The position numbers were made by a program, and so were the translations under genes. From positions 14,596-78,595 of IMG/VR virus record IMGVR_UViG_2531839301_000007: a stretch of 64,000 nt of DNA, one strand, 5' to 3'. Below are positions 41,854 through 59,860 of the stretch, one piece after another. The notes beneath the pieces are model-generated. The model made no database searches. It worked only from the letters and a program-made list of their open reading frames with translations, and was not told the DNA's origin. Within the stretch, counting starts at the first letter, position 1. Each line of letters begins with the position of its first letter. The stretch comes from a virus. Taxonomy: Duplodnaviria > Caudoviricetes.

Positions 41854-41871
41854 TATAATATGTTTTTTAAG

Positions 41872-42516: not shown

Positions 42517-42604
42517 ACGTTCATTAAATCTTTGATTATTACTTTAAGGATACAAATAAGGGCAACCATTTCGATTGCCCTTATAATCCATTGTATTATA
42601 CTCA

Positions 42605-42898: not shown

Positions 42899-43001
42899 GA
42901 TTTACTACAATTCCTAAGCTGAACATCGAAATTAATATCTACTTTAAAAGTTATTCTATCCATATTACATATTAATATTATTATCCATAAGTTTATTTAT
43001 T

Positions 43002-43271
43002 TTATTTTCTAAAAAACATATCTCCCGAAATGGATCGGGCTGTATCATCACCGGTAAGACGAATATACCTGAAGAAGTTTTGTTCTGTCCGGTGCCCGGT
43101 GAATTGACCTACAGTTTCGGGAATGACTACATAGGGAACATTTCGGCTTGTCTCCGATAATGACTGCCTGTCTTCTACAATGTAAGTATTACCACACTCA
43201 TGATAATAGTACCCGGTAATCCATTTCCCATTATCGGCAGACTTCCCTCTGAATTTTATTGTACGATTCAT
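43002..43271 (-). pseudogene. Truncated YopX-like gene fused to an integrase C-terminal fragment
   Basis: IKFRGKS..GKW..G ...ETVGQFTG then HRTEQNFFRYIRLT. Confidence 0.65.
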
Positions 43272-43272
43272 T

Positions 43273-43470
43273 TTAATTCTCATCTAAATTTATCAAATCC
43301 ATTTTACTGACAGCCTTTAAGACTCTTAGGATATCCTCCTGAAAGTCTATAACCTGTTGGTTACGCACTCTCTTTTTCAACTCTATCAGGGATAGTTCCT
43401 GTATTCTTATCAAAGATGAAATATCGTTCACCAACTCAATTGTAATTTCTTTTTTCTTAGATTGTTTCAT
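43273..43470 (-). CDS. Phage hypothetical protein
   Basis: 65 aa coupled ORF. Confidence 0.5.
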   Translation of the reverse strand: MKQSKKKEITIELVNDISSLIRIQELSLIELKKRVRNQQVIDFQEDILRVLKAVSKMDLINLDEN

Positions 43471-43472
43471 AA

Positions 43473-43910
43473 TTATTCCTTTCCTTTAAAGTGTTCGATT
43501 AGCTCTTCTACGGTAGCCTTGTGATAATTTCCCATGTTAGTATCTTTAGGTATAGAATCAAAAGCTAATGTTCTATATACAGTATTACATGGTGAACAAC
43601 ATTCTGTTTTTGGATGATATGCCCATTCTTCTCCATTGGTGAACCATTGATTTTCGTTTGTATCATCCCTGAGTGAAGCGATAGCCAAGAAAAGTTCTTC
43701 GTTAGTTCCGCAATCAATATCATTAGTTTTACGAATATCTTCATTGTCGAGCCATTCAGGGTGTATAGAATGATAAAAATTAAGATAGGCAGCTGTACAC
43801 AAACAAGACCTATCACGTCTTAATGAAGAACAGTTATATCCCAACTCCTCCAACTTCTTCCGAAGCTCCGGTGTGTTGCGTCTAATAAACGCTGCTGTTG
43901 TAAATCCCAT
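43473..43910 (-). CDS. Phage hypothetical protein
   Basis: MGFTTAAFIRRNTPELRKKLEELGY; coupled ORF. Confidence 0.65.
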   Translation of the reverse strand: MGFTTAAFIRRNTPELRKKLEELGYNCSSLRRDRSCLCTAAYLNFYHSIHPEWLDNEDIRKTNDIDCGTNEELFLAIASLRDDTNENQWFTNGEEWAYHPKTECCSPCNTVYRTLAFDSIPKDTNMGNYHKATVEELIEHFKGKE

Positions 43911-43912
43911 AG

Positions 43913-44104
43913 TTAGTCCTCCTTTCTGTATCTTTTAATGACAGCACTTTTGTTGAAAATAAATAGTTTTATCAAAGCTATAATTAGCTTTAATAGCTCT
44001 AATTTGCCGACAATGATGACGTTAATATCATAGATAATATTATACCAATTTCGATATGGCTTAAGACACCTGAAAACAGTAGTCACATTTGTTATTTTCT
44101 TCAT
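43913..44104 (-). CDS. Small hypothetical protein
   Basis: 63 aa coupled ORF. Confidence 0.4.
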   Translation of the reverse strand: MKKITNVTTVFRCLKPYRNWYNIIYDINVIIVGKLELLKLIIALIKLFIFNKSAVIKRYRKED

Positions 44105-44126
44105 TTCTTTATTGTTTTGAGCCTAA

Positions 44127-44921
44127 TTAGGCTACATCGTTAATACTAATTTCTCCTTTCAAAACTCGTTCTACCTGCCTGTCGATTATCTCTTGAAACT
44201 CTATCTGGCAGATAAGAGAGCAATCCGGTATAATTTCTTCCACTGGGTCACCTCGCCACGTTGGTAGTTCATCAAGGAAGATTCGCCCGTCTTTATCTTT
44301 TAGGCATGTTGCACCTACATCACGTTCAATCTGTGCCATTTGAGCAAATACCTCCGGGAAGTCTTTCCGGATTTTGTTCCAGTAGCCCATGCCACCTTTC
44401 ACACAGCCGATGCAGTTGTTGTTATTGTATCCCATCCTGTACATGGCGGGGATTTCAATACCGGCTTTCCAAAGCATACCCATAGCATCCGACTTTGTAA
44501 TCTGCTTTTCAATGAGCGGAAACAGTGGCTTTGTGTCTGGATACTGCTGTTTCAAGCGGATAGCCCGGTTAATCTCTTTTGGATCGTAATCGAATCCCCA
44601 AACTTGACCGTCCCAAGAACCAAGTTCCTTTTCTAACTTATACCGAACTTGTTTCTTCAGTTCGAATGTACAAGCTGCACCAGTCGGACCATTGATGTAC
44701 CGTTTTTTAATCAGTACATCTTCTACGTTGAAATACTTATCGCTGCGAATGGTGTGTATTGGCTGATCGTACCATTTTTCACAATCCGCAAGGAATCGGG
44801 CGTTATCAGGATGTCCGGAGCCTGTCTCGATGTAGTAAATCTGCACATCATCGTATAGACTTAATGCTATCTTACAAGCAACTGCGGATGTTGCACCACA
44901 AGAAAACCATGTTATTATCAT
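44127..44921 (-). CDS. PAPS reductase-family (PP-loop) protein
   Basis: WFSCGATSA PP-loop; NNNCIGCVKG; start at 44921 preferred. Confidence 0.8.
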   Translation of the reverse strand: MIITWFSCGATSAVACKIALSLYDDVQIYYIETGSGHPDNARFLADCEKWYDQPIHTIRSDKYFNVEDVLIKKRYINGPTGAACTFELKKQVRYKLEKELGSWDGQVWGFDYDPKEINRAIRLKQQYPDTKPLFPLIEKQITKSDAMGMLWKAGIEIPAMYRMGYNNNNCIGCVKGGMGYWNKIRKDFPEVFAQMAQIERDVGATCLKDKDGRIFLDELPTWRGDPVEEIIPDCSLICQIEFQEIIDRQVERVLKGEISINDVA

Positions 44922-44943
44922 TTGATTACTTTCTTTTTCGTTA

Positions 44944-45225
44944 TTAGTTATTCTTTGAAATCCAGTTATCAGTATCACAGTGGAAGCAATATCCGCTTTT
45001 AGGATGTTCCGCACCGTCTTTAGCTCCACAAGTTCCGCAATAATACTCCTTATCATATTCCGGAGAAAGACCTTTATTCCGTTCTTTGATTACTGCTTTT
45101 CTTTCTTCAAGCATCATCATTTTATCGGGATTACGGCTCAAATAAAACTTTCTGACTTTATGTATTTGCTTTTCAAACAGTTCGTCAGATTCTGCAATTT
45201 GTTTGGCTGTATATTTCATATCCAT
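44944..45225 (-). CDS. Hypothetical zinc-finger protein
   Basis: CGTCG...CFHCD. Confidence 0.55.
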   Translation of the reverse strand: MDMKYTAKQIAESDELFEKQIHKVRKFYLSRNPDKMMMLEERKAVIKERNKGLSPEYDKEYYCGTCGAKDGAEHPKSGYCFHCDTDNWISKNN

Positions 45226-45229
45226 TTTG

Positions 45230-45448
45230 TTATTCGTTATCTAATCCTATGCAAAACTCCTCTCTCGTCTCGTTCCCATAATTGGTATGTAGGGCATTGA
45301 GTGCATTCGTGATTTTGTCCGCTTCATCTGCATATACTTCACAATCCCACCTAATTGTAGTTTTAGATGGTAACTTTATTACAGCAAGAAGTGTATCTAA
45401 ATTGTCAACTGCTTCTTGAATCTTATCTAAGCATTCCTTTCGTGTCAT
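45230..45448 (-). CDS. Phage hypothetical protein
   Basis: 72 aa coupled ORF. Confidence 0.5.
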   Translation of the reverse strand: MTRKECLDKIQEAVDNLDTLLAVIKLPSKTTIRWDCEVYADEADKITNALNALHTNYGNETREEFCIGLDNE

Positions 45449-45468
45449 AAATGTTCCTTTCTATCTTG

Positions 45469-45873
45469 TTATACGTTAAACACTTTCTTAGCCATATCAA
45501 TGACCTTATCAAACTCTCGATTAAATTCATCTATGCTAATTCTTTCACCAAGAGAATGAACGAATTTAGAATAATGCGGGTCAATGCTAATAATGCCATC
45601 CTTGCATACTTGAAATTTTAAAGTTTCACATCTAGCTAGTACATTGTCATTTTTTAAACCACCGATGTACAAATCATTAGGAGTTAGAGAAGTAATTTTA
45701 AAATAAGTGTACCAGTAGTCTGATTCTTTCTCTGGGCAGCTATACGAATTTCTGTACTTATAACATGTTCCGATTAATTCCTTAAATTTAGGATATTCAG
45801 CATTTATCATTGCCTGCCGTTCCTGTTCTTCGATATCGGCTAATGCTTTCATTAGTTCTTCTTTCTTGCTCAT
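45469..45873 (-). CDS. Phage hypothetical protein
   Basis: 134 aa. Confidence 0.6.
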   Translation of the reverse strand: MSKKEELMKALADIEEQERQAMINAEYPKFKELIGTCYKYRNSYSCPEKESDYWYTYFKITSLTPNDLYIGGLKNDNVLARCETLKFQVCKDGIISIDPHYSKFVHSLGERISIDEFNREFDKVIDMAKKVFNV

Positions 45874-45921
45874 ATCTTTCTTGTTTTATGCAAATCCTTC
45901 AAGAACTTGCAAGGTTTTACT

Positions 45922-46404
45922 CTAATTGATTCGTACATACTTACCTGCGATATCGCAAGTTCTTAATATCTCTGCATTATTTTCTCCAAAGGCTATTAGG
46001 ATACTGCCGCAACCGGGCGAATCTCCACGAGTCCCATCAGGTCGGAAGAACCTAATCCGGTTACGCAAAAACTTCATCGCTGTTGCCTTCTCGAATATTA
46101 TGTCTTGAAACATCTTTGAATCACAACGATTAAAGAGTAATGCAATTCCGTTTCCATGCTCCGCCATCCGTTTTATAAACTGTTCAATAAGCGGACGGGA
46201 ATAAGGAGGATTAAGCCATACTCTGCCAAACCATTCTTTTGATAAGCCATCATCATTCTTGTTATACATTCGTGTAGCTGTTTGCCAAAGCGGTTTAACC
46301 GGAGCGCATGGATCTAAATCAAACTTTCCCAATGCGTCTATTATTTCCTTCGGAGTGTACCATTCGTCAGTAGCACAAGCCGAACGTTCAAATCTTGTAT
46401 TCAT
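45922..46404 (-). CDS. Phage N6-adenine DNA methyltransferase
   Basis: DEWYTP, FDLDPCA, WLNPPY. Confidence 0.9.
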   Translation of the reverse strand: MNTRFERSACATDEWYTPKEIIDALGKFDLDPCAPVKPLWQTATRMYNKNDDGLSKEWFGRVWLNPPYSRPLIEQFIKRMAEHGNGIALLFNRCDSKMFQDIIFEKATAMKFLRNRIRFFRPDGTRGDSPGCGSILIAFGENNAEILRTCDIAGKYVRIN

Positions 46405-47507
46405 TATTCTTTTGTTGTTTGCAATTTAGACAACCAATATTCCCAAATCCGTTGTGCTATTTGAGCCATCATTACAGGAGGAACAGACATTCCCATGATA
46501 TATCCGGGATTCATCTGTAGAAAGTTGTAATCTGACGGAAAGCTGCTTATTAGCAGCCATTCTCTTTTGGAAAGTAATCGCTTTTCATCAAATATAACAT
46601 AGCACGCGTTATCGACATGTGCAGCAAGAGTTCCACAAACTTCATCTTTGTATAGATACATATAACTGAATGCCTTTCTTTTTCCTGTAACTCTTTGATA
46701 AGTTTCTCCCATACATTTCTCACCAAACTTCTTTAAATCCCATCCTTCGCTTACAATACGTGTCATTGATTTCATGGGGATGTCCTTCGGTTTATATATT
46801 TCTTTAAAGGGAGTTTTGGGTTCGTCAAAATCCAATTTTATATATGGCTCAACATTAAATAAGTCTGAAACCTTTAAGAAATTGATACCTAAATCATGTC
46901 TGATACAAATAAAAAACACTCTTTCTCTTGATTGAGGTACGCCCATATTTTCGGAATTAAGCAAAAAGTGTTGGCAGTAATATCCTGCTTTATCAAACTC
47001 TTTATATATCTTTATTACATAGTTAATTGCTGTTCCAATCAATAATCCTTTCACGTTTTCAGCTACAACAACTTTAGGCTTTAATTCTTTTGTTAAGTCT
47101 ATAAAATCAAAGAACAAAGTATCAAGAATCTGCTTGGATTGACCTTCACGGAATTTCTTTTCTTTTCTCCAATCGCTTTCCCTATTGCCAGCTATGGAAA
47201 ATGTGGAACATGGAGGACTGCCATCTAAAATATTCAGATTGTATAACTCATGCGGCAATGCCTTCTCTTTGGCTTTTGTGACAAGTTTTCGTATATCACA
47301 ATTGAAGTTCAGTCTTGGATGATGGTTTTCAACATAGACTTCATTAATTTTAGGGTCTATTTCGTTGCAACCAATAACATCAAATCCTGCAAGTTTATAC
47401 CCCATCGTACTACCACCTCCACATGCGAAGCAGGAGAAAACAGTTCCTTTATCTTTTGTGAAAATACTATTCTTTAAAGTCCAATTAAATGGGAATTTAC
47501 ATTTCAT
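46404..47507 (-). CDS. C5-cytosine DNA methyltransferase
   Basis: FACGGG, GSPPC, ENV, QSRERVF, GMSVPP. Confidence 0.92.
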   Translation of the reverse strand: MKCKFPFNWTLKNSIFTKDKGTVFSCFACGGGSTMGYKLAGFDVIGCNEIDPKINEVYVENHHPRLNFNCDIRKLVTKAKEKALPHELYNLNILDGSPPCSTFSIAGNRESDWRKEKKFREGQSKQILDTLFFDFIDLTKELKPKVVVAENVKGLLIGTAINYVIKIYKEFDKAGYYCQHFLLNSENMGVPQSRERVFFICIRHDLGINFLKVSDLFNVEPYIKLDFDEPKTPFKEIYKPKDIPMKSMTRIVSEGWDLKKFGEKCMGETYQRVTGKRKAFSYMYLYKDEVCGTLAAHVDNACYVIFDEKRLLSKREWLLISSFPSDYNFLQMNPGYIMGMSVPPVMMAQIAQRIWEYWLSKLQTTKE

Positions 47508-47509
47508 GT

Positions 47510-48025
47510 TTATATTGTTATAGAGTTAGACGTTTGTAGATAATTAATCCTTCGTAGTTTATGGAAACGATAATATGCCGAAAGATTAAGTTTATCAATG
47601 AATTTGTTGTCAGCTTTGGTAGAGGACACCTTTTGAGCGGCTTTAGCTACATGGAAATAAATAATAGGTTCCGTATATCCATCTGCCCGGCGTGTTCCAT
47701 TGATAGCATAAATAAGTCCGGCAAATTCAGGAACTTCTTCTGGCTTCACAAGTCCATCAGGAACTATGTAATAGAAGTAGTTGGTACGTCCACCAGCCAA
47801 AATGTTATCAAATTTGCTGTCCCCATTTTGATCTTGCTTCTTACTATCTTTGTGGAAATCACACCTACTGACTTTTACTTCATATTCATAAGTGAGCCGT
47901 GACCGGGTAACTTCTAAAAGGTCGGCTTCCCATTTTTCAACGAAAACATTTGGGTATATTTTGTTTCCCTTTCTATCCCGGAAGACAAGCTCACAGAATC
48001 CATTAATAATATCGGCTGTTTTCAT
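47510..48025 (-). CDS. MmcB-like PD-(D/E)XK nuclease
   Basis: EADLL...YEVKVSRCDF...YFYYIVP. Confidence 0.75.
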   Translation of the reverse strand: MKTADIINGFCELVFRDRKGNKIYPNVFVEKWEADLLEVTRSRLTYEYEVKVSRCDFHKDSKKQDQNGDSKFDNILAGGRTNYFYYIVPDGLVKPEEVPEFAGLIYAINGTRRADGYTEPIIYFHVAKAAQKVSSTKADNKFIDKLNLSAYYRFHKLRRINYLQTSNSITI

Positions 48026-48429
48026 TTCAGTTTACCAAACTGTTTATCAAGTTCATATTGGAAGAAGCCTAAAGCCTCTTCATACTCTTTTCCTTCAATA
48101 TTAGAAAAATACATGGCACTACTAAAGGCTTTAAGTGCAGCTTCCTTTCCTTTCTTTATGTAATATTCAGCTTTTACAACCGCCTTTCTTTCAGTCTCTT
48201 CTTTTTGAAATTGTAGATGTCGGTCAATGGCACTACGTCCCCATTGGAATAGCTCTTCTTTATCTCCAAAAGTTTTTGATTCTTGCCAAACGATACGTTT
48301 TTCAGAAGAAAAAGCGTAAGCGGATATTCCTTTGTGTTTTTGTACGTGTACAACAATATCAAAACCTTTGTATTCTTCTTGCCAGCCGTAACCACCAAGA
48401 GAGAAAGGAAACTCATTTTTTTCGATCAT
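48022..48429 (-). CDS. Phage hypothetical protein
   Basis: 135 aa coupled ORF. Confidence 0.6.
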   Translation of the reverse strand: MIEKNEFPFSLGGYGWQEEYKGFDIVVHVQKHKGISAYAFSSEKRIVWQESKTFGDKEELFQWGRSAIDRHLQFQKEETERKAVVKAEYYIKKGKEAALKAFSSAMYFSNIEGKEYEEALGFFQYELDKQFGKLK

Positions 48430-49688
48430 AAAGCCTTAATGTTTATCAATGGTCGAATCGTATCAATTATATCAACGGTAGGTTCAATAAGCTCTTTGAT
48501 TTCATCCGTATTTTTGTATGCCATAGGACTTTCGTCTATTGTTCCTTCACATACGGATGTAGAATATACTTCAACCATTCTTTCTTTGAATGTCTCCATT
48601 GATAATTTCTCTTTGGCAAAAGACCGGGAGAATAAACGTCCGGCTCCATGTGGTGCAGAGTAATTCCAATCAGGATTTCCCTTACCGCGACAAAGTAATA
48701 TACCGTCAGCCATATTCATAGGAATAACTACTATTTCATTCTCATGTGCAGATATGGCACCTTTACGAATAATAAGGTCATCAAAGTTGATATAATTATG
48801 CACCGTTTCGATGGTAGACGAAGTTTTCCAGCCCAATGCATGGGAGATACGATTGATAATTGTCTGCCGATTTAATGAAGCGTATGTTTGCGCTATTGAC
48901 ATATCAAATAGATAATTATACATTGCAGTATCAGACAAATATCCATTTCTAATAGAAAATTCTTCTTTAATCCGTTTTATCTCTTCCTGAAGACGCTGTG
49001 GTGGAACAGTTTTCTTGATCTCTTCCAATTCCGAGGAAAAAGCCCTCTTGTCAAACTTCGCTAATTTGGCGTAATACTTACAAACTTTCACACCAAAGTT
49101 TCGAGAACCTGAATGAATAGTTAGATATATACAATTATTTGCATCTTTTCCTATCTCAATAAAGTGATTTCCACCACCCAAAGAGCCGATTGAATTGTAG
49201 AATACCTTTTCATTCATACCTACCTTTTTGCATAGTTTGGTTATATATGATTCATCGACATAAGGCGGCTCCGGGAACATCCCCTCTCGATGAAAAGATA
49301 GATTAATGTTTGCTTTGTCGAAGAATGACTGCTTTTCGGATTCTGTGATAGATTCACTATTAATGTCAAATCCCATTGGAACAACGTTTCTGATAGTTCT
49401 ATCAATCTCTTCAAAAGAAGATTCACTAACAACATTCAGAATCCTCACAAAAGCCATCCCGCAACCAATATCTACACCAATATGATTGGGGTTGATAAGC
49501 CCTGTAACTGGCATTGTGAAACCAATCACAATATCAACTCCCTGATGTGTGTCCGGCATAATCCGTACAGGAACATCTTTGGTAACTGGATTATCAAGAA
49601 TGTTTTGGATTGTGCCGATAGCAGCAGACTCTATTGTTTTTGCAAAAACCTTGCAGTCTTTTCCATATTTTCCTTTTAGTTCTATCAT
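48426..49688 (-). CDS. rtcB: RtcB-family RNA ligase
   Basis: MPDTH, VGVDIGCG-like HIGVDIGCG, GSLGGGNHF, HSGSR, HNY, HGAGR, DESPMAYK. Confidence 0.93.
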   Translation of the reverse strand: MIELKGKYGKDCKVFAKTIESAAIGTIQNILDNPVTKDVPVRIMPDTHQGVDIVIGFTMPVTGLINPNHIGVDIGCGMAFVRILNVVSESSFEEIDRTIRNVVPMGFDINSESITESEKQSFFDKANINLSFHREGMFPEPPYVDESYITKLCKKVGMNEKVFYNSIGSLGGGNHFIEIGKDANNCIYLTIHSGSRNFGVKVCKYYAKLAKFDKRAFSSELEEIKKTVPPQRLQEEIKRIKEEFSIRNGYLSDTAMYNYLFDMSIAQTYASLNRQTIINRISHALGWKTSSTIETVHNYINFDDLIIRKGAISAHENEIVVIPMNMADGILLCRGKGNPDWNYSAPHGAGRLFSRSFAKEKLSMETFKERMVEVYSTSVCEGTIDESPMAYKNTDEIKELIEPTVDIIDTIRPLINIKAL

Positions 49689-49690
49689 AG

Positions 49691-49900
49691 TTATATTTTT
49701 TCGTTGAGTTTATCTTGAAGTTCGTTTGCACAGTTCTTTGCGTAATCTGAATCGGCGTCCACAAATGACTTAATTGTTATCCAAATTAACATAATTCTCA
49801 CCTGTACTTTATACTTTGGGATAACGTACAAGTCTTCACATCCATATTTGTCAGCCATGATTGCATAGCATTTTACTGTTTTAATTCTGTACTTCTTCAT
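49691..49900 (-). CDS. Phage hypothetical protein
   Basis: 69 aa coupled ORF. Confidence 0.5.
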   Translation of the reverse strand: MKKYRIKTVKCYAIMADKYGCEDLYVIPKYKVQVRIMLIWITIKSFVDADSDYAKNCANELQDKLNEKI

Positions 49901-50180
49901 ACCCTTCTTGTTTTTGTGATTTCTCCTTCACCAATCGAAAAGCGTCTTCAGCCCCTTTCTCATAGCCTTTATAATATCCGGTTTTCTCTTTGTGATTTTC
50001 AACAGCACGCCATTGAGACGCACCAATACAAATAGAAAAACCGATAAGCATGACAATTGCTCCGATGCCAAATACTGGATTGTCCAGACTGAATTTCAGT
50101 GGTCTAAAAGAAATGTCCACGCCGGAAAGGGCTATAAATAATATGAATAGCCCGGCAATTAGTTTAATTATTTGTTCCAT
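49881..50180 (-). CDS. Small membrane protein
   Basis: Two hydrophobic helices. Confidence 0.55.
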   Translation of the reverse strand: MEQIIKLIAGLFILFIALSGVDISFRPLKFSLDNPVFGIGAIVMLIGFSICIGASQWRAVENHKEKTGYYKGYEKGAEDAFRLVKEKSQKQEGYEEVQN

Positions 50181-50614
50181 AATGCTTCTTCTACTTTAAA
50201 TGTGAATGATAACAATGATTGGCATCCGCCTCTTAATTGAGTATGTCGGTTACAAACGCTTGCAGAACCACAATGGGAACAAAAAGCATTTTGTACCTTT
50301 TCAAGTGACTTTTCCGTACCTTCCTCAAATATTAGTTCTAATCCATAAATTTGTGCGGCATGGTATTCCAATAAACATCCGTTAGATTTCTCCCAGCCAC
50401 GGCAAAAGAAAACCGCTTGACATTCCAGTAATGCCATAATATCACGTCCCATGTAGTATGATATTGGCTTGTCCGGTTCCGGTGAGATTTCTAACGGGGA
50501 GATAGGTATGTATCCTTTTTGTTTGAGAGCCTTTTTTATCAGGTCTGACTTGCGCTTAACATATTGGTGTGGAATACCCGTTATTGGCAAACTGATATAA
50601 ACGCTCTTATTCAT
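50168..50614 (-). CDS. DUF4406 / nucleoside deoxyribosyltransferase-like protein
   Basis: VYISLPITG...WEKSNGCLLE; start at 50614 preferred. Confidence 0.75.
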   Translation of the reverse strand: MNKSVYISLPITGIPHQYVKRKSDLIKKALKQKGYIPISPLEISPEPDKPISYYMGRDIMALLECQAVFFCRGWEKSNGCLLEYHAAQIYGLELIFEEGTEKSLEKVQNAFCSHCGSASVCNRHTQLRGGCQSLLSFTFKVEEALWNK

Positions 50615-51200
50615 ACCTGAAAGATGTAAAATGAATGATAGCCATATCTTGTGAAGTATCGGCACCTTTGAACCATGCTGCCCAATCTTCAAAGGACAAT
50701 CCATCATTATGTGCAATTTCTTCCAATGTAAGATTTACTTTTATCTTGCCATCAACAGATATAGCTACACACTCTTTGTTATCCAGTTTATCTACGAATC
50801 TTATAATCTTCAATGGCTGTATTCCAACGCCATCATCTTTTGTCAGATTAAGAATAGTCGTTTGCTTACTCCGGTAGGGTTTTCCCGACCATTGTCGAAT
50901 AGATAATACCGCATTTCCTTCTTGTACTTCATTGATACGCTTCTCCCATAATTGGTAGTTTGTGCGTATCGTATGAATCTTTGGAAAATTCCACGGTATT
51001 CCGTTTTCAATTATTGCGTTTCGGGAACAACTTCTTCGGGTATTATCTTTCCCATCAAAAGAACAGTCCCACATGCAAGCATCACTTAAATTTCTTCCCA
51101 TGAGAAATTTACACCGAAATCGAGTTGGTTTTCCGACTTTTGGGTGCCCTTTCAAGAAGAAAGGTGAAAGAGTTATCACGTATGTTTTTATTTTGTCCAT
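50607..51200 (-). CDS. Hypothetical protein, possibly ASCH/PUA-like
   Basis: KIHTIRTNY, LSIRQWSGKPY, IAHNDGL. Confidence 0.6.
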   Translation of the reverse strand: MDKIKTYVITLSPFFLKGHPKVGKPTRFRCKFLMGRNLSDACMWDCSFDGKDNTRRSCSRNAIIENGIPWNFPKIHTIRTNYQLWEKRINEVQEGNAVLSIRQWSGKPYRSKQTTILNLTKDDGVGIQPLKIIRFVDKLDNKECVAISVDGKIKVNLTLEEIAHNDGLSFEDWAAWFKGADTSQDMAIIHFTSFRYE

Positions 51201-51258
51201 ACTATCAGAAATAAAAATGGCTGCAACTAACGCCGCAGCCATTGATTAGACATGCTTT

Positions 51259-51843
51259 TTATCTTTTCCCGATCAGAAAATCTCTCCATAATTCTTTGAA
51301 CTGATTTCCAAAGTATTTGGCTATTTCCTCTGATTTTACAGCAAGGCGAGAGCCGACAGACGCAGTCGAGACCGACCAAGCGTACTTCGAGTACGCACAC
51401 GCCAAGCCGCAGTACGCACCGTAATCCGCATTACCGCCCCAAAAGACAAGCTCTTTGCGTTTCTCTTCGTCCATGTCGTCAATCTCTTCTTGTGAATACA
51501 GATAATACCACGGGAACCAACGGTATTCGTTTTCAGTGAACCGAGGAAACTCCGGGTCATTGTTCAAAGCACGGGCAATCGTGGATAGCTTCACATAAGC
51601 GATATGTGCAATGTCAATCACCTCTTCTTTCTGCCCGTCTCCATATTCGATAAGTAGGCGGGAAACAGGTTTGATACCAAGTGCTTCACAAGCATCTTCA
51701 TAGGTTTTAATGTTATGAAAATCAGTATAATCCGGTTTCTGTTTACCGAAAAGATTAGTAAGAATGTTGATAGCAACTTCGCAACCGTCAGCGGACTTAA
51801 ACGCTTCAGTTACATTTTCTTGTTTAATTTCAATAGCTTTCAT
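51259..51843 (-). CDS. DGR target 2: small non-structural protein with VR at C-terminus
   Basis: Contains VR2 (ELVFWGGNADYGAYCGLACAYSKYAWSVSTASVGSRLA). Confidence 0.9.
   Translation of the reverse strand: MKAIEIKQENVTEAFKSADGCEVAINILTNLFGKQKPDYTDFHNIKTYEDACEALGIKPVSRLLIEYGDGQKEEVIDIAHIAYVKLSTIARALNNDPEFPRFTENEYRWFPWYYLYSQEEIDDMDEEKRKELVFWGGNADYGAYCGLACAYSKYAWSVSTASVGSRLAVKSEEIAKYFGNQFKELWRDFLIGKR
51340..51455 (-). repeat. DGR variable repeat VR2 (remote)
   Basis: 116 bp vs TR 35673-35788: 14 mismatches, 13 at TR adenines, one T>G. Confidence 0.95.
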
Positions 51844-51868
51844 AATTTACTGATTATTAAAATGTTAG

Positions 51869-52549
51869 TTATTTATTTTCTTCTTTTTGTATTTGACGAA
51901 CAATGAAAGGTTGGCTGACAAAAGACTTTTTTTCTCTCATTTTCTTAATAAGGTCTTCATGGAATTTCACTCTTTCAATCGCTTCTTCGTCTCCGGCTTC
52001 AGCAAGTTTATGCTGATTATCCCAAAATTCATCATAAGGACAACTGATTGAAGACTTATCATCTGCTTTATGAGCTTTGTTTTCGTTTATGATATTAAGT
52101 GAACAGAACTCGTCGCGTTCTGCATCATAATCATTAAGCCAGCCAATGATTATGTTCCCGTCCAATCTATCGTACACTTTGCCGGAGCACATTGCTCTGT
52201 GAAAGCAATATTTTATCTCTTCCAGTTTGAAATAATAAAACCTGTCTATAATCAAATCTGATGTAATTGCTACCTGAATATCATTCATTGTTTTTCCAAC
52301 ATTGAAAAACTGAACAACTTCAGAGATGGCTATTGCGACAATAGCTTGTGCCGCGTTTATATCACCATATTTAATTGTAGCAAGTTCGGAGATAGGTAAT
52401 TCCGGTGTATCAGTTAAAATGCTCTTAATCGAGGATTTTTGCAAACCCCTGTAATACGCCTTCGGAGAGGTCAGCAAGTCTTTCAACGCTTTCTTTACGG
52501 TTGCCGGGAGATTGGTTTTGGCTAATACTAAGTTGTGTTCCTGTTCCAT
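51869..52549 (-). CDS. Putative replication/helicase-loader-associated protein
   Basis: 226 aa next to replication-initiator-like gene; VYDRLDG motif. Confidence 0.55.
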   Translation of the reverse strand: MEQEHNLVLAKTNLPATVKKALKDLLTSPKAYYRGLQKSSIKSILTDTPELPISELATIKYGDINAAQAIVAIAISEVVQFFNVGKTMNDIQVAITSDLIIDRFYYFKLEEIKYCFHRAMCSGKVYDRLDGNIIIGWLNDYDAERDEFCSLNIINENKAHKADDKSSISCPYDEFWDNQHKLAEAGDEEAIERVKFHEDLIKKMREKKSFVSQPFIVRQIQKEENK

Positions 52550-52889
52550 TTTTTAGTTCAAATAAGCCAGCCCAGTTATTTGCGATGGATTGTTCTACGA
52601 CTGCCATTGCAATATTGGGATTGGTGTTTGACAATTCGAGTAGTTTATGGTAACATGCTTCTATCCCTGATTGGGTGTACGCTTGTTTCCGTTCTTGTTT
52701 GTATTTTACCCACCTTTCGATAATAGGTAAAAAATCTGCCGGGACAAATGATAAATCAAGTTCCTTTTTACGAGATTTACTTCTTTTTCCTGCATCGTAA
52801 CCAGCAAGCCATGATTGTTTGGCTACCTCTTGACAATCAGGATATGTTTTTGCATAATCCTCTGCCTTTTGTACTAAATCCTTTCCCAT
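52425..52889 (-). CDS. Replication-initiator-like C-terminal domain protein
   Basis: WVKYKQERK..Y.......VEQSIANNWAGLF. Confidence 0.55.
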   Translation of the reverse strand: MGKDLVQKAEDYAKTYPDCQEVAKQSWLAGYDAGKRSKSRKKELDLSFVPADFLPIIERWVKYKQERKQAYTQSGIEACYHKLLELSNTNPNIAMAVVEQSIANNWAGLFELKNGTGTQLSISQNQSPGNRKESVERLADLSEGVLQGFAKILD

Positions 52890-53413
52890 AACTTTCCTAC
52901 TCGTTTAAATTCTTCATCATGGGGAACCGGACAATCTTTTATCCAGATCATATCCTTTATCTGCCAATGGGATAGATTAATACTTTTAGGAATAAGAGCT
53001 TTCATATTAGCGAAGAGATTAAGACGAAGAGATTTATTCTTGACTGTTTCAGGGAATAGTCCGATTGCTCTATTCGCTTTTAGAAAAGATTCAATGTCTT
53101 TTTCCGAGTGTGGGGTATAAACAACTCCATCCACATAAGGAAGAATAGTCAGAATACCATCTGCAAGCGCAGTATATATAAAAACGCTTACCTCGTGGTT
53201 GTACGCTAACACATTGGAGTTTTTAATAGCATCCGATAAGATAGCTACTTGATCGGGAAACAGGAGTGGTTCACCACCAGTTATCATCACTTCTTTATAA
53301 TTGAAATGGTCTACTACCGGAAGTTTCGTGAAATCCCATGAATTATTGCAGCACATGGGACATTTATTGGGGCATTGGGTAGTTACCAGCAAACGTAATT
53401 TATCTTTTTCCAT
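52874..53413 (-). CDS. Small radical SAM protein
   Basis: CPNKCPMC (CxxxCxxC) and ITGGEP. Confidence 0.85.
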   Translation of the reverse strand: MEKDKLRLLVTTQCPNKCPMCCNNSWDFTKLPVVDHFNYKEVMITGGEPLLFPDQVAILSDAIKNSNVLAYNHEVSVFIYTALADGILTILPYVDGVVYTPHSEKDIESFLKANRAIGLFPETVKNKSLRLNLFANMKALIPKSINLSHWQIKDMIWIKDCPVPHDEEFKRVGKLWERI

Positions 53414-53682
53414 TACAGAGTGATTTTTTGTGTATATTGTAATTCTCCTGTATAGCCACGCGCTTTCAGTTCATCCATTAGATGCCGTGGAGTAAACTTT
53501 GCTAATTCAGGATTGGTAAAGACCTTCTTCAAATTGTTAGCTGAAGGTTTACTCCTTTTTTTGAAATATTCCTTGCCACAATCTTTGCAATAATCTTGCA
53601 ATCCATCTTCTTTTGAAGCATTTTTCCAAAATTCACTTACTGGAAGTTCTCTTCCACATTTGGGGCATTTTTTTGTTTCCAT
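53413..53682 (-). CDS. Zinc-finger protein
   Basis: KKCPKCG...YCKDC. Confidence 0.7.
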   Translation of the reverse strand: METKKCPKCGRELPVSEFWKNASKEDGLQDYCKDCGKEYFKKRSKPSANNLKKVFTNPELAKFTPRHLMDELKARGYTGELQYTQKITL

Positions 53683-53693
53683 GATTTTTATAA

Positions 53694-54158
53694 TTATAGT
53701 TTCTCTTTTATTCTTGCATATTCACAAATGAGAAGTGCATCACTGATAGCAAGAGTGATACTCTTTATGTATGGGAAGAGTTGTTGGGCTTTAGCTCGGA
53801 GCTTATTCTTCCATATCGTAGTACTATCATCACCTTTAGTTCCCAACTGCAATGCTTTCTGCCATATTTGAGGTGTAACAGTTACAGTAGGGATATCACA
53901 AGCAAGCAATGCCATTTCTAAATGTCCGTAACCTTTTCCAAAGTTGAACATTGCGGAGCCACCTTGCCCCGGCATACCACCTACTTTTTCAAGATAGCAA
54001 ATAGAGTCTTCTTTATGCTTTAGAAGAAATGATAGTACATCTTGCGGAGTGGAAGGCATTTTAATAACTTCTATCACATTAGATGATTCATTGGAGTAGA
54101 CTGCTATACCACCGTTTGTACCGGGGTCAATAGCAATGATTTTAGATTTTGCTTTCAT
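53694..54158 (-). CDS. RuvC-like Holliday junction resolvase
   Basis: IIAIDPG, YLEKV, FNFG, DALLI. Confidence 0.85.
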   Translation of the reverse strand: MKAKSKIIAIDPGTNGGIAVYSNESSNVIEVIKMPSTPQDVLSFLLKHKEDSICYLEKVGGMPGQGGSAMFNFGKGYGHLEMALLACDIPTVTVTPQIWQKALQLGTKGDDSTTIWKNKLRAKAQQLFPYIKSITLAISDALLICEYARIKEKL

Positions 54159-54336
54159 TATCTAATTTATTGATTATTATTTGTGAAAGACGAGCCTTAT
54201 TAGCTTCTCTAAGAGACTTGTTTTCTTTGTAATTGGCAAGTCTTATTTGCCGTGCATACTCTAACTCGGCTCGCATGTGTTTCAAGTCTGCTTTGGTAAA
54301 TAGTTTCTTTTTCATAATCATAATAGAAATGGGCAA
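54142..54336 (-). CDS. Small hypothetical protein
   Basis: Short ORF coupled to resolvase. Confidence 0.45.
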   Translation of the reverse strand: MPISIMIMKKKLFTKADLKHMRAELEYARQIRLANYKENKSLREANKARLSQIIINKLDNESKI

Positions 54337-54408
54337 CCTACTTTCACAAGCGAGTTACCCCAAGATTAAACAAATGTAATTTTAAGTGCAATATTTTTAT
54401 CGTAATTG

Positions 54409-54489
54409 TGGACGGTGCCGGAGTCGAACCAGCCTCACGGATATTGGTGCACCTCACCGTAGTTTCAGCCCACGATAACACAACCGCCC
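54409..54489 (-). ncRNA. tRNA-Ala-like RNA with 16-nt anticodon loop
   Basis: Acceptor GGGCGGT/ACCGTCC with G3:U70 and A73; T arm GCTGG TTCGACT CCGGC. Confidence 0.65.
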
Positions 54490-54533
54490 TTATTTCCCGG
54501 ATACCAAACCAATGGACACCGGGATTTTTATTA

Positions 54534-54653
54534 TCATTCAGCGATAATCGCAAGCTGACCGCAAGCGGCACCATTTTCAATCTCTGACTTTGTAGCTATT
54601 GCCACAGCATAGTCATACCCTAAATTTTCTAACTGTTCTTTAATTTCCTTCAT
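54534..54653 (-). CDS. 39-aa peptide carrying the RlmN-type catalytic AACGQL motif (not in ORF track)
   Basis: Hand translation MKEIKEQLENLGYDYAVAIATKSEIENGAACGQLAIIAE. Confidence 0.8.
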   Translation of the reverse strand: MKEIKEQLENLGYDYAVAIATKSEIENGAACGQLAIIAE

Positions 54654-54672
54654 AACTTTGTAAATTAATTGT

Positions 54673-55455
54673 TTATACTAAATTCACACCTTCAATAATA
54701 CCTTCTCCCAAATGATTTTTTTCAGAAATATTATTAGGGTTTATGGGAGATAGTTTTATGAAGAAGTGCTTTTTATCGAAATATTTCTGAAGTAACTCGG
54801 CATTAAAATCAGATTCATCTACCAGTGTAAGATTAATAGTCGTTTTTAGATTACTTTCAGTCCGTATTCGACCAAGTTCTTCAATAGACATCTTTGATGG
54901 ATATGGGATAAGCCAATTCCGTTTTTGTTCATCAAAACTATGTAGACTGATTTGTAGAGTGATATTATCTTTAATAAAAGAGAAATCACTTCCCTGTATT
55001 CCTATTGTTGAAATGTAATGGTGGGTATTGGGATATACCTTCGATATACGTTCAATAGCTTCCTTTACAGCCTCTATATTCAAAAAAGGTTCACCCATTC
55101 GAGTATAGTTTATTTTAAACTCTTTAGCACTTTCAGGATTAAAACCAGCCTTCTTTATAGCAAAAAAGACTTGTCCCACTATTTCATCGGCTGTTAGATT
55201 CCGATATTTCTTCATATTCCCAGTTGCACAAAATTTGCATCTCACAGGGCAACCGCTCATTGTAGATACTCCGATCATCCATCGTTCTGAACGATTACCT
55301 AAATTGGAATTATCCAAAGAGTTTTGTTTTCTTCCTATTGCATCTTTTGTATAAAATGGGAGAAAGGTATCAGTCGTTTCTACTAACATTCCATCTTCAA
55401 GTTGGAGGCAATACACAACTCCATTCTTGAAATTCTTTTGTTTTTTTATTTCCAT
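54673..55455 (-). CDS. RlmN/Cfr-like radical SAM RNA methyltransferase, N-terminal part
   Basis: SGCPVRCKFCATG, MGEP, ISLH, LSPINP; lacks terminal AACGQL. Confidence 0.85.
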   Translation of the reverse strand: MEIKKQKNFKNGVVYCLQLEDGMLVETTDTFLPFYTKDAIGRKQNSLDNSNLGNRSERWMIGVSTMSGCPVRCKFCATGNMKKYRNLTADEIVGQVFFAIKKAGFNPESAKEFKINYTRMGEPFLNIEAVKEAIERISKVYPNTHHYISTIGIQGSDFSFIKDNITLQISLHSFDEQKRNWLIPYPSKMSIEELGRIRTESNLKTTINLTLVDESDFNAELLQKYFDKKHFFIKLSPINPNNISEKNHLGEGIIEGVNLV

Positions 55456-55568
55456 AGGTATATATAAAAGTTCCCGGATAGGTTATCAAGCTACACCGGG
55501 AGATGCTATTATTAATCAAATAATGGGGCTTTCACCCAACGCCATTCCTTACGATAGCGGATTAGTTA

Positions 55569-55784
55569 TTATTTGAGGAACTTTGAGAATGTCTTGATTG
55601 AACTGTCATTGTCAGTTTTCAGAGATTGAAGTTCCTTGTTTTTTGCAGCTAAATTTTGCATTTGAGCCACATTATCATCCATCTCTGCCTGAATTTCAGC
55701 ATTTAGATTCTCCAAATCCGTTTTTGCTTTAGCGAAATCGGATAAGATACTTTCTCTTCGTTGTTTATAGTCCATAGAGCACAT
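55569..55784 (-). CDS. Small coiled-coil protein
   Basis: 71 aa coupled ORF. Confidence 0.55.
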   Translation of the reverse strand: MCSMDYKQRRESILSDFAKAKTDLENLNAEIQAEMDDNVAQMQNLAAKNKELQSLKTDNDSSIKTFSKFLK

Positions 55785-56530
55785 TATTGTTCAATGATTG
55801 GAATTTCAGGAGTCAATTCACGGATGATTTTCAACTGTTCGTCAATAGCTTTGTTTCGCTCTTGCTCAATTACGACTTCGGCACCGGGAGAGCAGAGAGA
55901 TAATCGAATATTTCTACCATCAACATCAGCGATGATTTCTACTTCGATCACTTCTGCGGAACGTCCTTTGAAAATAGGGATGTTGAGGTTGAAAGCCGCC
56001 GGAAGATTTGAGTTTACTACCTGACTGTAATTGTCAGTCCGGCTACCGTTATCTTCATTACTTCTTTCCAATTTGGAGTCAATACTTGCCTTAAAGTTCT
56101 TCAAGATAGAAACTAACTCCATGTTGTACGCTATATCTGTGAAGAAGGCGCGGTTCATTTTGATGAAGCGGGAAAGTTGTGCTGGTTCCCATGTCTTCTC
56201 AACAGAATTGATGCCAAATTCAACGAACTTCGGATACATGGCTAATGAACCTTGTACTTCTGCCTTGTTGCGTCCGTCAGTTTCATTTGTAATTAGCTTG
56301 ATTGTCATATTCTCGCGATTCACAAGAATATGGCAACGTTTCTGATTGATCTGTTCCGGTTCAGACTTTCTCTTTTTCAAGAACTCTGCAACGCTTCCAA
56401 TCGTGCCACTCAAACTGACTTTTAGTGGTTCCAAAACAGGAAGAACATTCTCTTTGTCCAGTTCAATAACTTTAATAGTTGCTTTCTCCATACCCGGAGC
56501 AAGGTTAATTTGCATTTTTTCGTTTTCCAT
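55784..56530 (-). CDS. Phage hypothetical protein
   Basis: 248 aa. Confidence 0.7.
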   Translation of the reverse strand: MENEKMQINLAPGMEKATIKVIELDKENVLPVLEPLKVSLSGTIGSVAEFLKKRKSEPEQINQKRCHILVNRENMTIKLITNETDGRNKAEVQGSLAMYPKFVEFGINSVEKTWEPAQLSRFIKMNRAFFTDIAYNMELVSILKNFKASIDSKLERSNEDNGSRTDNYSQVVNSNLPAAFNLNIPIFKGRSAEVIEVEIIADVDGRNIRLSLCSPGAEVVIEQERNKAIDEQLKIIRELTPEIPIIEQ

Positions 56531-56552
56531 TGTTGTTTAAAAATTAAAATGA

Positions 56553-56981
56553 TTAATAATCTGTTCCTGTTGCAGCCAAATCCTCTTGGATTGTCTTTTG
56601 CATTTCTTGTGCCTCCATTGGACGCTCTCTCACCAAATCACCATTGCCATTGTAATAGCAAGCAGTACGGGTTTCGCGGTCAAGGAATTTGTAACATTCA
56701 TCTGTCACATCTTCATATTTGCGCTTGATGTCTTCTATGAGTTTTCCACGTTGCTTGGTAATAGGCTTCATTTTCTCTTTGATACGGTCTTGTACAGCCT
56801 TTTTCTCGGCTTCCAGTTCTGACATTTCTATATCCAAATTGGCAAGAGACGTTTTTCTTGCTTCCATTTCCTCTTCGGAAAATTGATGCGGATAAGTTAT
56901 TTTTTCAATAGCCGCACAGTTGTCTTGCAACATCTGTAATCTTGCAAGAGGTTCTTTGTTTTTAAATAATTCTTTTTCCAT
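56553..56981 (-). CDS. Phage hypothetical coiled-coil protein
   Basis: 142 aa. Confidence 0.65.
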   Translation of the reverse strand: MEKELFKNKEPLARLQMLQDNCAAIEKITYPHQFSEEEMEARKTSLANLDIEMSELEAEKKAVQDRIKEKMKPITKQRGKLIEDIKRKYEDVTDECYKFLDRETRTACYYNGNGDLVRERPMEAQEMQKTIQEDLAATGTDY

Positions 56982-56991
56982 AACTTGATAT

Positions 56992-57291
56992 TTAAAGTGG
57001 TTTTAAATCGTATCTTGCAGAGCCGACAAACGGTGTCGGATTTTTGCGAACAAAAGTCCTCAACTGGCTATCAGTTTTAGGATTGAATAAACGTTGTACT
57101 CCGTTTTTGTCAATGACAATTAATTCAGATGCCACATAACAAATGAATCCTTGCAAACGTTGTTTCAACCATTTGTTTTGAGCGGTGCGAGATTTCTTAT
57201 AATTTTCATAGCTCATTCCCTTTGGGCGAGAAGTAAGAAGCTGTACATTACGTCCAACTTCTTTTTGTACGTTAACTTTACTTTTCTTCAT
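56992..57291 (-). CDS. Phage hypothetical protein
   Basis: Basic ORF; start at 57291 preferred. Confidence 0.55.
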   Translation of the reverse strand: MKKSKVNVQKEVGRNVQLLTSRPKGMSYENYKKSRTAQNKWLKQRLQGFICYVASELIVIDKNGVQRLFNPKTDSQLRTFVRKNPTPFVGSARYDLKPL

Positions 57292-57850
57292 GGATAATTT
57301 TTTTAAATTGTGTATGAGATAAAAATTTGGTGCAGCATGTGTAAACAGAATTTTCGTTTGAAACAAAAGGTTCTTCTCTGTCGCTGTTAATAGTAGAAAG
57401 CTCTGCTATACAAGCACCGTTTTTATATCCATAGTTCCAGAAAATACATAAATCACCGGGAGTTGGTATGTATTTCGGCTTGTTCTCCTTAAAATCGAAA
57501 TCAAAATGAACTTCATTTTTTGCAAGCTCCAGTAGTTTCGATTTTTCTTTTTCGGTTGCTAAACGAAAGCCATCAATGTTACCGATTCCACATTCGGGAG
57601 TTTCCGTTATGAAGAATCTGTTCCCTTCTTCATTTTGAGGAACATAACTTATGTATCCATAAGGAACTTTAAATTTGATAGGAAGAAGAGGACTCGTATT
57701 TTCGATAATACTATCAAGAATCATCATGCTACCATCTTTATCTCTGATGATGACATCTCCTTTTCTGAATATCTTTTCCTCTTTACGGGTAGAGGACATC
57801 TCTTGACTGATTGCAGCAAGAGCCATTAATGCTAATAATCCTTTTTTCAT
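57278..57850 (-). CDS. Phage hypothetical protein
   Basis: 190 aa; RLATEKEK motif. Confidence 0.65.
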   Translation of the reverse strand: MKKGLLALMALAAISQEMSSTRKEEKIFRKGDVIIRDKDGSMMILDSIIENTSPLLPIKFKVPYGYISYVPQNEEGNRFFITETPECGIGNIDGFRLATEKEKSKLLELAKNEVHFDFDFKENKPKYIPTPGDLCIFWNYGYKNGACIAELSTINSDREEPFVSNENSVYTCCTKFLSHTQFKKIIHEEK

Positions 57851-57924
57851 AATTGTAATATTTAGTAGTTATTTATTGAAAAGCATGGGAATTATTAAAT
57901 TCTCAAACTTCTATTAATTGCTTG

Positions 57925-58812
57925 TTATTTGATCTCTTCGGCGTATGGAGTATCTTCTTCGTCAAAATCATCCGGCTTTTGACTTTGTGATTTACGCCAG
58001 TCTTCAAACATTTCATCATCTAACTGACTTTCTACTTCGAGAACTTTAATCATAGAATCTGAAATACCTGTTTTCGGAAGGAATTTGAAAGCCCAGTTTA
58101 CTATGGTTTTGCGTGCCATTTCCTCGAAGTCAGTGTCCCACGGAGACTGCTTTCCTTTTTTGACCGCCTCGGAACGACTTTTTATTTCCTCTATGCGAGA
58201 TTTAGGCATAGCATCGTACTTCTCTGCACCCGAAGTCAAAACTGCGTAATAGTAGCCTCCCATGAGGTCGCCACGTTCTCCAAAAACGTCCGGTTCGTGA
58301 GTTAATTTACCACCTGTGCCTTTAGTCATGCTGAACTTATCATTGGTGTAAACCAAATCAGCGTAGATGTCTTTGACGACTCCGGTACGGATAAGAATAT
58401 CAACCTTCCCCATGTATGAGGCTTGAAATTTGACCTTGCCCTTGTAAGGTACAAGATAACCTAACTTTAGTTCGGGATTCAGTGATAATCCAGTAAGCGA
58501 CACGTTTTTGATCGCTTCAATCAGGTGATCGGGGTATGCTTTTGCACAATCAATCAGATATGTGTTGTTCAACATTGCTTGCATAGCGAAGTTTACTTCA
58601 CGTGCAAACTGCTGTTCTGTACCTCCGGCAGCTAAAAACGCTTTCTTTGGAGATATAAAGCATTTTTCCAAACCGCTAAGTTGCTGGGGAAAAGCTGGTG
58701 GAGCCGTTGGGGTTACGACTGGAACTTGCGGTGCTGGTTGTTCAGGAGCCGCTTGCGGTTGTGGGGCTTGTTGTCCCATGTTTAAATTACCTTGTTGTTC
58801 ACTTGGTTTCAT
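57925..58812 (-). CDS. recT: RecT-like single-strand annealing protein
   Basis: GLSLNPELKLGYLVPY, SYMG, EMARKT. Confidence 0.85.
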   Translation of the reverse strand: MKPSEQQGNLNMGQQAPQPQAAPEQPAPQVPVVTPTAPPAFPQQLSGLEKCFISPKKAFLAAGGTEQQFAREVNFAMQAMLNNTYLIDCAKAYPDHLIEAIKNVSLTGLSLNPELKLGYLVPYKGKVKFQASYMGKVDILIRTGVVKDIYADLVYTNDKFSMTKGTGGKLTHEPDVFGERGDLMGGYYYAVLTSGAEKYDAMPKSRIEEIKSRSEAVKKGKQSPWDTDFEEMARKTIVNWAFKFLPKTGISDSMIKVLEVESQLDDEMFEDWRKSQSQKPDDFDEEDTPYAEEIK

Positions 58813-59783
58813 TGATTTTTGTTGTTATAAAAGTTAAACATTCTGTTTTTCTCGAATGAAGGAGTATCGGGTATCATAATTCTACGTCCTTTGAAACCGG
58901 GCTGGATAAATACCTGTGCTCCATCGAAATCATTGTTTTGTGTGCAGTAGACATGTTGTTCGAGCAACTTTGCAAATAGAAGAGCACTTGCACCCATTTT
59001 CACAATACCGTCTTCCATGTGATAAGCCCAGTTTGCGGCACTGACGAATACGGCATCATAAGGGGCAGTCTTTTGCTGCATTACCCAATAAAACTCTTTC
59101 CATACGCCTGTACGTTCGTGCTCCATAAACTGATAGAAGGCGGCAGATATTCCGTAATGGAATTTGGTGATTATCCTATTGACTGTATCTTCATGTAAAT
59201 CATCTACTGCAACAGTTTTCCAGTCGATGATTTTTTTGGCAGTCTCAACGTCCGGGCGGTATTTGAATTTACAATTTTTGTATTCAACAAAGTGACTGAC
59301 TTCAGCTTTCGTCTGTTTAAAGCTCAATATTTGCTTGATTTGCTTGGAAGTCTCCCGGCAGCAATTCAATAATTCATATACCATTGTTTCAACTAACTGA
59401 ACGTCAGCACTACTTGTTAGGCTTTTTCCGGGGTTTGCGGCAACAGCTTCCGCGAGTGCGTCTCTGTATTTTTGAGTTTCACGTCCATAAGGGCATCCGG
59501 TTCGTTCGTTGATCGGCGGCTGGAAAACTAATAAGCTGTTTCTCCATTTGTCAAGTGATCCAGTATTCACAATGCTTTCCATCGCATCATGGTACAAAGA
59601 GCCTTTTTCGGCAGCTTCAGCACCTATCTCGAACATTTCAGGATGAAGTGCTTTAAACCGGGCAAATTTGGGGGAGACAAGATAGTCTTTGATTTGTGTA
59701 CTACTTAGGAAGTCTTTGAACCGTTCTCCCCGGTGGTATTCCTCATTGGGAAGATCATAAATTGTATCTTTGAATTTACTCAT
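58809..59783 (-). CDS. RecE/exonuclease VIII-like PD-(D/E)XK nuclease
   Basis: LPNEEYH, GSLYH, KYRPD..IIDWKT; adjacent to RecT. Confidence 0.85.
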   Translation of the reverse strand: MSKFKDTIYDLPNEEYHRGERFKDFLSSTQIKDYLVSPKFARFKALHPEMFEIGAEAAEKGSLYHDAMESIVNTGSLDKWRNSLLVFQPPINERTGCPYGRETQKYRDALAEAVAANPGKSLTSSADVQLVETMVYELLNCCRETSKQIKQILSFKQTKAEVSHFVEYKNCKFKYRPDVETAKKIIDWKTVAVDDLHEDTVNRIITKFHYGISAAFYQFMEHERTGVWKEFYWVMQQKTAPYDAVFVSAANWAYHMEDGIVKMGASALLFAKLLEQHVYCTQNNDFDGAQVFIQPGFKGRRIMIPDTPSFEKNRMFNFYNNKNQ

Positions 59784-59860
59784 ATATTGATTATTTGAGA
59801 TTTCTATATAAAAAACTCCCTACTTTCACAAGCAAGGAGTCCGGCAGCTTTAATTAAAAG

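Follow-up and report, generated by a model that had tools for sequence, protein, structure and literature searches.

Phage DGRs with two variable repeats (VRs) have already been described. Quimbyvirus ('Quimbyviridae'), reported by Benler 2021 (PMC8008677), has a reverse transcriptase (RT) encoded in three overlapping frames and two VRs, one located downstream of the tail-fibre genes and the other distal, on the opposite strand, near genes for a nuclease, methyltransferases and a tRNA ligase. Variation among near-identical genomes of this phage is adenine-specific, C-type lectin domains are reported in both of its targets and a role of the distal target in phage-host conflict is suggested (PMC8008677); the wording 'lectin' does not occur in the accessible portion of the supplements of this paper. 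According to the same work, all the phage DGR targets that have been studied experimentally are receptor-binding proteins. Furthermore, the accessible part of Dahlman 2025 (PMC12629997) reports that four species of induced prophages possess a second VR, distally placed and close to counter-defence genes, and states that bacterial DGRs have been implicated in anti-phage defence. The global DGR survey of Roux 2021 was unable to detect remote targets. The existence of a second target and the idea that it serves anti-defence are already published (Benler 2021; Dahlman 2025), hence neither is new.

The window studied here is a stretch of 64,000 nt (positions 14,596-78,595) of the IMG/VR provirus record IMGVR_UViG_2531839301_000007 (Caudoviricetes), a prophage whose host type is gut Bacteroides. 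Its distal target shows the same arrangement as that of Quimbyvirus, with no essential difference, and the window belongs to a relative of this phage. The sequence-only reading had mentioned a distal second target in 'Quimbyviridae', and correctly so: the feature is the same (PMC8008677). The nearest named phages, LoVEphage, PV4-TP1 and BI-TP1, share about 73% DNA identity with the target locus, and IMG/VR relatives are 90-93% identical. The elements of the DGR are the following.

34230-35549: 439-aa tail-type protein with VR1 (phrog_5302 'tail protein', E = 2e-43)
35386-35498, plus strand: VR1, at the C-terminus of the 439-aa protein
35673-35792, plus strand: TR, intergenic, A-rich wherever VR1 or VR2 departs from it
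36064-37493, plus strand: DGR reverse transcriptase, three overlapping ORFs in three frames (36064-36744, 36623-36958 and 36906-37493)
51259-51843, minus strand: gene for the 194-aa second DGR target (phrog_11581, full-length match, E = 1e-50)
51340-51455, minus strand: VR2, variable repeat, 88% complementary to the TR
51340-51357, minus strand: IMH-like 3' end of VR2, with TTGCT (ATACT in the TR) after a G+C-rich stretch

A repeat search of the window found three copies of a repeat of about 116 nt (35386-35502 and 35676-35792 on the plus strand and, inverted, 51340-51455), and there are still only three in the entire 78,595-nt provirus record. The second of them falls between genes and is rich in A wherever the two VRs depart from it, and is therefore the TR; read in the frame of the target, it contains ten AAY codons and one TAT. 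VR2 lies within the C-terminal third of the 194-aa ORF, 15,551 nt away from the TR and on the opposite strand, as had been noticed from the sequence (about 15.5 kb). Over 116 nt it shows 14 mismatches with the TR, and 13 of them fall on TR adenines (hypergeometric P = 2.3e-9, 26 of the 116 TR bases being A), which bears out the earlier count; the sole other mismatch is a T>G change (AAT>AAG, K153). VR2 also differs from VR1, as had been claimed, at 13 positions over the 116-nt register, 10 of them within the shared VR. The concentration of TR/VR mismatches at TR adenines by which a DGR variable repeat is recognised is found in VR2 and, in the same form, in five further genomes.

The adenine count needs one refinement. 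At the 3' end, CATACT occurs in all six TRs while CTTGCT occurs in all 12 VRs (VR1 and VR2 of the six related genomes). Of the 13 adenine mismatches, the two located here recur unchanged in VR1 and VR2 of all six genomes; they therefore represent a fixed IMH/IMH* marker rather than mutagenesis, which leaves 11 mutagenised adenines in VR2. The fixed difference between the VR end (IMH) and the TR end (IMH*) that characterizes DGRs is present here.

An RT gene adjoins the TR, as expected of a DGR cassette. RVT_1 was recognised in the first two RT ORFs at consecutive profile positions (41-103 and 114-185, E = 6e-5 each), each match taken singly being below the Pfam cut-off, and the enzyme would be active, judging from the variation of the VRs. 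Whereas the Mtd cassette has avd, no Avd-like gene was recognised here among the cassette ORFs scanned against Pfam or in the 124-aa ORF at 37511-37885, which has no NCBIfam family match. Likewise, no significant hairpin or cruciform of the BPP-1 type was found 3' of the VRs (DNA folding z = 0.03 for VR1 and -1.02 for VR2). The BPP-1-type hairpin enhancer is not universal among DGRs.

Comparison of related genomes indicates that VR2 is being rewritten. In the five IMG/VR relatives, the TR shows at most three differences from that of the window while VR1 and VR2 are particular to each genome, with mismatches nearly all at TR adenines. VR2 is not invariant beside a varying VR1, since both differ in these five relatives. 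Across the six related genomes, 11-19 TR adenines are changed in VR1 and 11-17 in VR2, so that the two VRs are at about equal distance from the TR. Among 19 proteins at least 93% identical to the target, the scaffold is identical nearly throughout and the variable residues are 138, 140, 141, 144, 149, 151, 153, 154, 158, 160 and 162, which the TR encodes by AAY (ten codons) or TAT (one codon); further differences are found at E131, whose codon has a TR adenine, and as single substitutions at five scaffold positions. The hypervariability that defines a DGR target is limited here to codons with TR adenines.

The VR peptide is unique in each of 92 full-length relatives; Tyr (24%) and Ser (19%) predominate, with position-specific preferences. 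Clusters at 90% identity contain 37,449, 14,127 and 1,149 distinct members. Codon analysis of Quimby-type genomes gave a dN/dS of 0.03-0.17 for the scaffold versus 2.7-9.5 for the VR (about 1-1.7 for the VR when compared with LoVEphage). The dS is about 0-0.06 in the VR and about 0.4 in the scaffold, the difference that repeated overwriting of the VR from a conserved TR would be expected to produce. Purifying selection on the scaffold together with change of the VR across relatives implies that the gene is functional and its VR continually refreshed. VR2 is a genuine, currently active remote target of the prophage DGR: the distinct VR peptides, the dN/dS contrast and the near-invariant TR strongly support the earlier proposal of a hypervariable second target. 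The theoretical diversity at the 11 sites amounts to about 2e12 peptides (9e12 with E131), and stop codons cannot arise from randomisation of the AAY and TAT codons of the TR.

The 194-aa protein consists of a scaffold (residues 1-130 and 167-194) and a VR (residues 131-166), and its start Met is common to its closest relatives (P0001-P0010). It resembles the tail target in one region only. The phrog_5302 'tail protein' profile matches residues 131-172 only, and the BLASTP alignment with the VR1 tail protein covers residues 131-180, with near-identity confined to the VR (131-168, 38 residues). The target was considered as a tail protein of the phrog_5302 type and this assignment was rejected, the match being limited to the VR instead of extending over the body of the protein. 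Since only the VR is shared with the tail target and with 'tail' PHROGs, a single VR module is carried by two unrelated scaffolds.

The target belongs to a large family. An exhaustive HMMER search retrieved 1,108 cluster representatives at 50% identity, mostly of 180-215 aa and matching end to end; the VR framework G-A-x-x-G-L ... S ... A ... G-S-R-L stays in frame across the family, and Tyr, Ser, Asn, Asp and His are abundant at the variable positions. Neither the target nor 69 of its relatives matched anything in Pfam, NCBIfam or PADLOC, including the defence and anti-defence families that these libraries contain; a profile search of PDB sequences with the target gave chance rows only and the ESM Atlas returned only its own unnamed clusters. 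Homology provided no tie of the target to a ligand, to defence or to replication. Some relatives (P0022, P0024, P0029 and P0117) have partial tandem duplications within the VR (212-219 aa) or out-of-frame residues 107-155, which may be either genuine enlargements of the VR or assembly errors in so variable a stretch.

With 29 close relatives, the AF2 model of the target reached a pLDDT of 49. With 69 diverse relatives, AlphaFold gave a pLDDT of 79 and a pTM of 0.69, residues 133-161 of the VR remaining below 50. A Foldseek search of this model, whose VR portion is of low confidence, against the PDB returned nothing at E <= 0.001, a VIA-wide structure comparison gave a best Z of 3.9 and no informative fold, and the BFVD matches are all uncharacterised gut-phage proteins. 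For the CLec fold (Mtd/TvpA type), the comparison comes down to the low pLDDT of residues 133-161 and to a profile alignment of Mtd with the target (hhalign) that has a probability of 1.4%, spans 12 columns at the VR end and is not significant. Other relatives are extended at the N-terminus, up to 362 aa, without recognisable domain except for one sub-threshold match: residues 40-71 of P0189 (244 aa) resemble Tad2 (Thoeris anti-defence 2 / DUF2829; E = 1e-3, 19.9 bits versus a cut-off of 25), in a stretch that ends ...SWEDILAEDW.... This is a weak lead towards an anti-defence context.

The genes surrounding the target are those of the early region of a temperate phage.

4496-5626: integrase
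41461-61284, minus strand: putative leftward early operon with the target, delimited from strand and gene order
45922-46404: Dam
46404-47507: C5-methyltransferase
48426-49688: RtcB
50607-51242: 211-aa protein (phrog_8581), directly downstream of the target
52425-52889: O-like/primosomal domain protein
53694-54158: RuvC-like resolvase
62777-63340, plus strand: CI-like repressor (phrog_4, phrog_6201), divergent from the early operon

In the order of transcription, the operon would start with an Ant-type anti-repressor, an exonuclease VIII-like protein, RecT and several unknown proteins, continue with radical-SAM proteins and the RuvC-like resolvase, then with a zinc-ribbon protein and the O-like/primosomal domain protein; a 226-aa unknown protein, the VR2 target, the 211-aa protein, a DUF4406 protein and RtcB follow, and the C5-methyltransferase, Dam and a PAPS-reductase-like protein close the series. 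The replication, methyltransferase and RtcB genes that the sequence-only reading had placed around the target were all located. The terminase, portal, head and tail genes, as well as the integrase, lie outside this block. The terminase and head genes are separated by a cluster of six tRNA genes at 12150-12921 (Met, Phe, Asn, Trp, Gln and Ser). Strand and gene order suggest the early operon of a temperate phage, transcribed as a single unit and expressed early.

The absence of a signal peptide had also been noted, and direct reading of the N-terminus MKAIEIKQENVTEAFK reveals neither a hydrophobic leader nor a lipobox. Leaders are also lacking in virion proteins such as tail fibres, which are synthesized in the cytoplasm as well. 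Because of this, the absence of a signal peptide is uninformative as to a cytoplasmic or a virion role. Of the earlier proposal that the protein is an early, non-structural one, what lends support is the gene order, which recurs in several unrelated phages; the argument from the signal peptide carries no weight.

Judging from their repeats, members of the same family are remote DGR targets in at least four other lineages: Bacteroides phage Versailles, BT-TP2, two crAss-like Suoliviridae and a metagenomic contig (L027). The members located most precisely are the following.

ON453897.1 10181-10762 (L030:9001-9582): homologue of the target in phage Versailles
NC_055889.1 97095-97463 (L031:3691-4059): gp19 (122 aa) of the crAss-like phage cr53_1 (Suoliviridae)
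L027 1-246, 968-1597, 6324-6908 and 14280-14367: paralogue and VR segments of the metagenomic contig

The Versailles homologue (38% identity) is encoded between NinB and a replisome organizer, and two more VR copies (53640-53741 and 53842-53938) are found 43 kb off, beside an RT (54436-54957). It is labelled 'tail protein', probably because of a likeness to tail PHROGs that concerns only the VR. A 38%-identical relative of the 211-aa protein is encoded 3 kb downstream of this small target; it is the sole relative found for any neighbour, no partner gene conserved across lineages having been detected. In BT-TP2, the VR of the family member has two copies near 40.3-40.7 kb.

In cr53_1, gp19 is about 60 kb from the DGR cassette, whose TR core is at 37624-37690 (NC_055889.1; L041), and 14 of its 15 mismatches with the TR over 67 nt are at TR adenines (P = 1e-7). 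The RT of this phage (38044-38619) contains six in-frame TAG codons, which suggests TAG recoding; in-frame TAG codons also occur in the genes neighbouring gp19, and their absence from the 122 codons of gp19 is uninformative on early timing. The same relation between repeats is found in cr115_1, a crAss-like phage of a different genus. The metagenomic contig encodes three paralogues. The VR of one of them (36% identity) recurs 7.4 kb away, at the C-terminus of a 1,882-aa protein; in all, two of the three have a VR in common with this protein, and the third, whose VR region is shortened and not repeated, may be non-diversified. Lastly, each of six LoVEphage-type records has extra matching places, consistent with VR1 and the TR.

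In Versailles and in loci L025 and L029, the family members are found at a distance from the structural genes, in regions devoted to early functions, recombination or replication, and wherever neighbours are annotated, these are recombination, replication, nucleotide-metabolism or methyltransferase genes. The members of cr53_1 and cr115_1 are found amid small unannotated genes and tRNAs, and that of L027 about 1.5 kb from an opposite-strand block that holds the 1,882-aa VR-bearing protein.

These data can be assembled into a mechanism. A cDNA of the TR with misread adenines replaces VR2 as well as VR1, both of which display the common 3' recognition end (the G+C-rich stretch and TTGCT); since this end is the same in both VRs, a single RT/TR cassette serves two genes 15.5 kb apart on opposite strands. 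The target, made from the leftward early operon, would remain in the cytoplasm and bind there, in an adaptable manner, a host component that varies from strain to strain and from species to species, i.e., it would be a determinant of host range acting after entry and complementing the receptor-binding VR1 protein. That VR2 is an active remote DGR target whose product works as such an early cytoplasmic binder is the interpretation we consider probable. Against it, homology links the protein to no ligand, to no defence and to no replication function, the structural model is least confident in the VR itself and matches no solved fold, and no neighbouring gene is strictly conserved across lineages. 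The precise role of the protein is more speculative. Neutralisation of a host defence protein can be put forward tentatively, while the capture of a host replication or recombination factor, suggested by the proximity of the gene to replication-initiation genes both here and in Versailles, seems rather unlikely.

Three other explanations have to be considered. The target could be an accessory adhesin associated with the virion, a small receptor-binding piece docked on the tail or head and encoded outside the structural module, in which case the DGR would diversify two adsorption specificities. Its VR is indeed the module of the tail target, with phrog_5302 matching residues 131-172, the Versailles homologue bears the label 'tail protein', a signal peptide is not required of a virion protein and the phage DGR targets studied by experiment all bind receptors (PMC8008677). 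However, the tail-protein similarity ends at the VR, and in Versailles, L025, L029 and the window the gene is surrounded not by structural genes but by those of early functions, recombination or replication, the situation of L027 being less clear. This makes an adhesin improbable.

The protein could also act on the side of the lysogen, as a sensor expressed by the prophage whose variable face would recognise the proteins of superinfecting phages and provide the host with an adaptable exclusion. The phage is temperate, as indicated by its integrase (4496-5626), its CI-like repressor and the classification of the record as a provirus, and bacterial DGRs are said to have been implicated in anti-phage defence (PMC12629997). 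Yet the gene is located deep within an operon that a repressor would silence, the protein has neither an effector domain nor a conserved partner gene, and the family is also present in crAss-like phages, so such a sensor appears quite improbable. A passive by-stander, in which a VR copy bearing an IMH would have landed in an unrelated gene and be rewritten without selected benefit, would account for the different origins of scaffold and VR (the tail-target similarity being limited to the VR) but is very improbable given about 1,100 clusters at 50% identity with the VR framework always in frame, the strong purifying selection on the scaffold, the targeting of the same family in at least five phage lineages and the position-specific residue preferences at the variable sites.

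If the cytoplasmic binder is retained, a broader proposal can be made, with reserve: proteins of the phrog_11581 type might constitute a dedicated class of DGR-diversified intracellular binders common to gut phages, encoded in the early regions of Bacteroidota phages that are unrelated to one another, Crassvirales among them, rewritten in trans by the tail-linked DGR and directing their variable face at host targets of defence or takeover. Were such a class to exist, phages would adapt after entry as well as at adsorption. A conserved, strongly selected and non-structural target would mean that phages also hypermutate proteins for use inside the cell. Moreover, as the target is one large family and a remote target in cultured or inducible phages (LoVEphage-type, BT-TP2 and Versailles), its ligand and its role are directly testable.

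Compared with Mtd of Bordetella phage BPP-1, the target shows the same general organization, i.e., a C-terminal VR whose 3' end carries an IMH, a TR with AAY codons and mutagenesis at adenines, as well as a short motif that resembles the end of the Mtd VR (AWSVSTASVGSR versus GPSFSFAFFGAR). The two differ in that Mtd is a tail-fibre protein encoded beside avd, TR and brt. As for the double-VR DGRs of induced gut prophages, the accessible part of Dahlman 2025 (PMC12629997) does not describe the distal targets as one family. Unlike in that account, as far as it is available, the family characterized here is also a remote target in crAss-like Suoliviridae, Versailles, BT-TP2 and a metagenomic contig, and this recurrence at the family level possibly goes beyond what Benler 2021 and the accessible part of Dahlman 2025 have reported.
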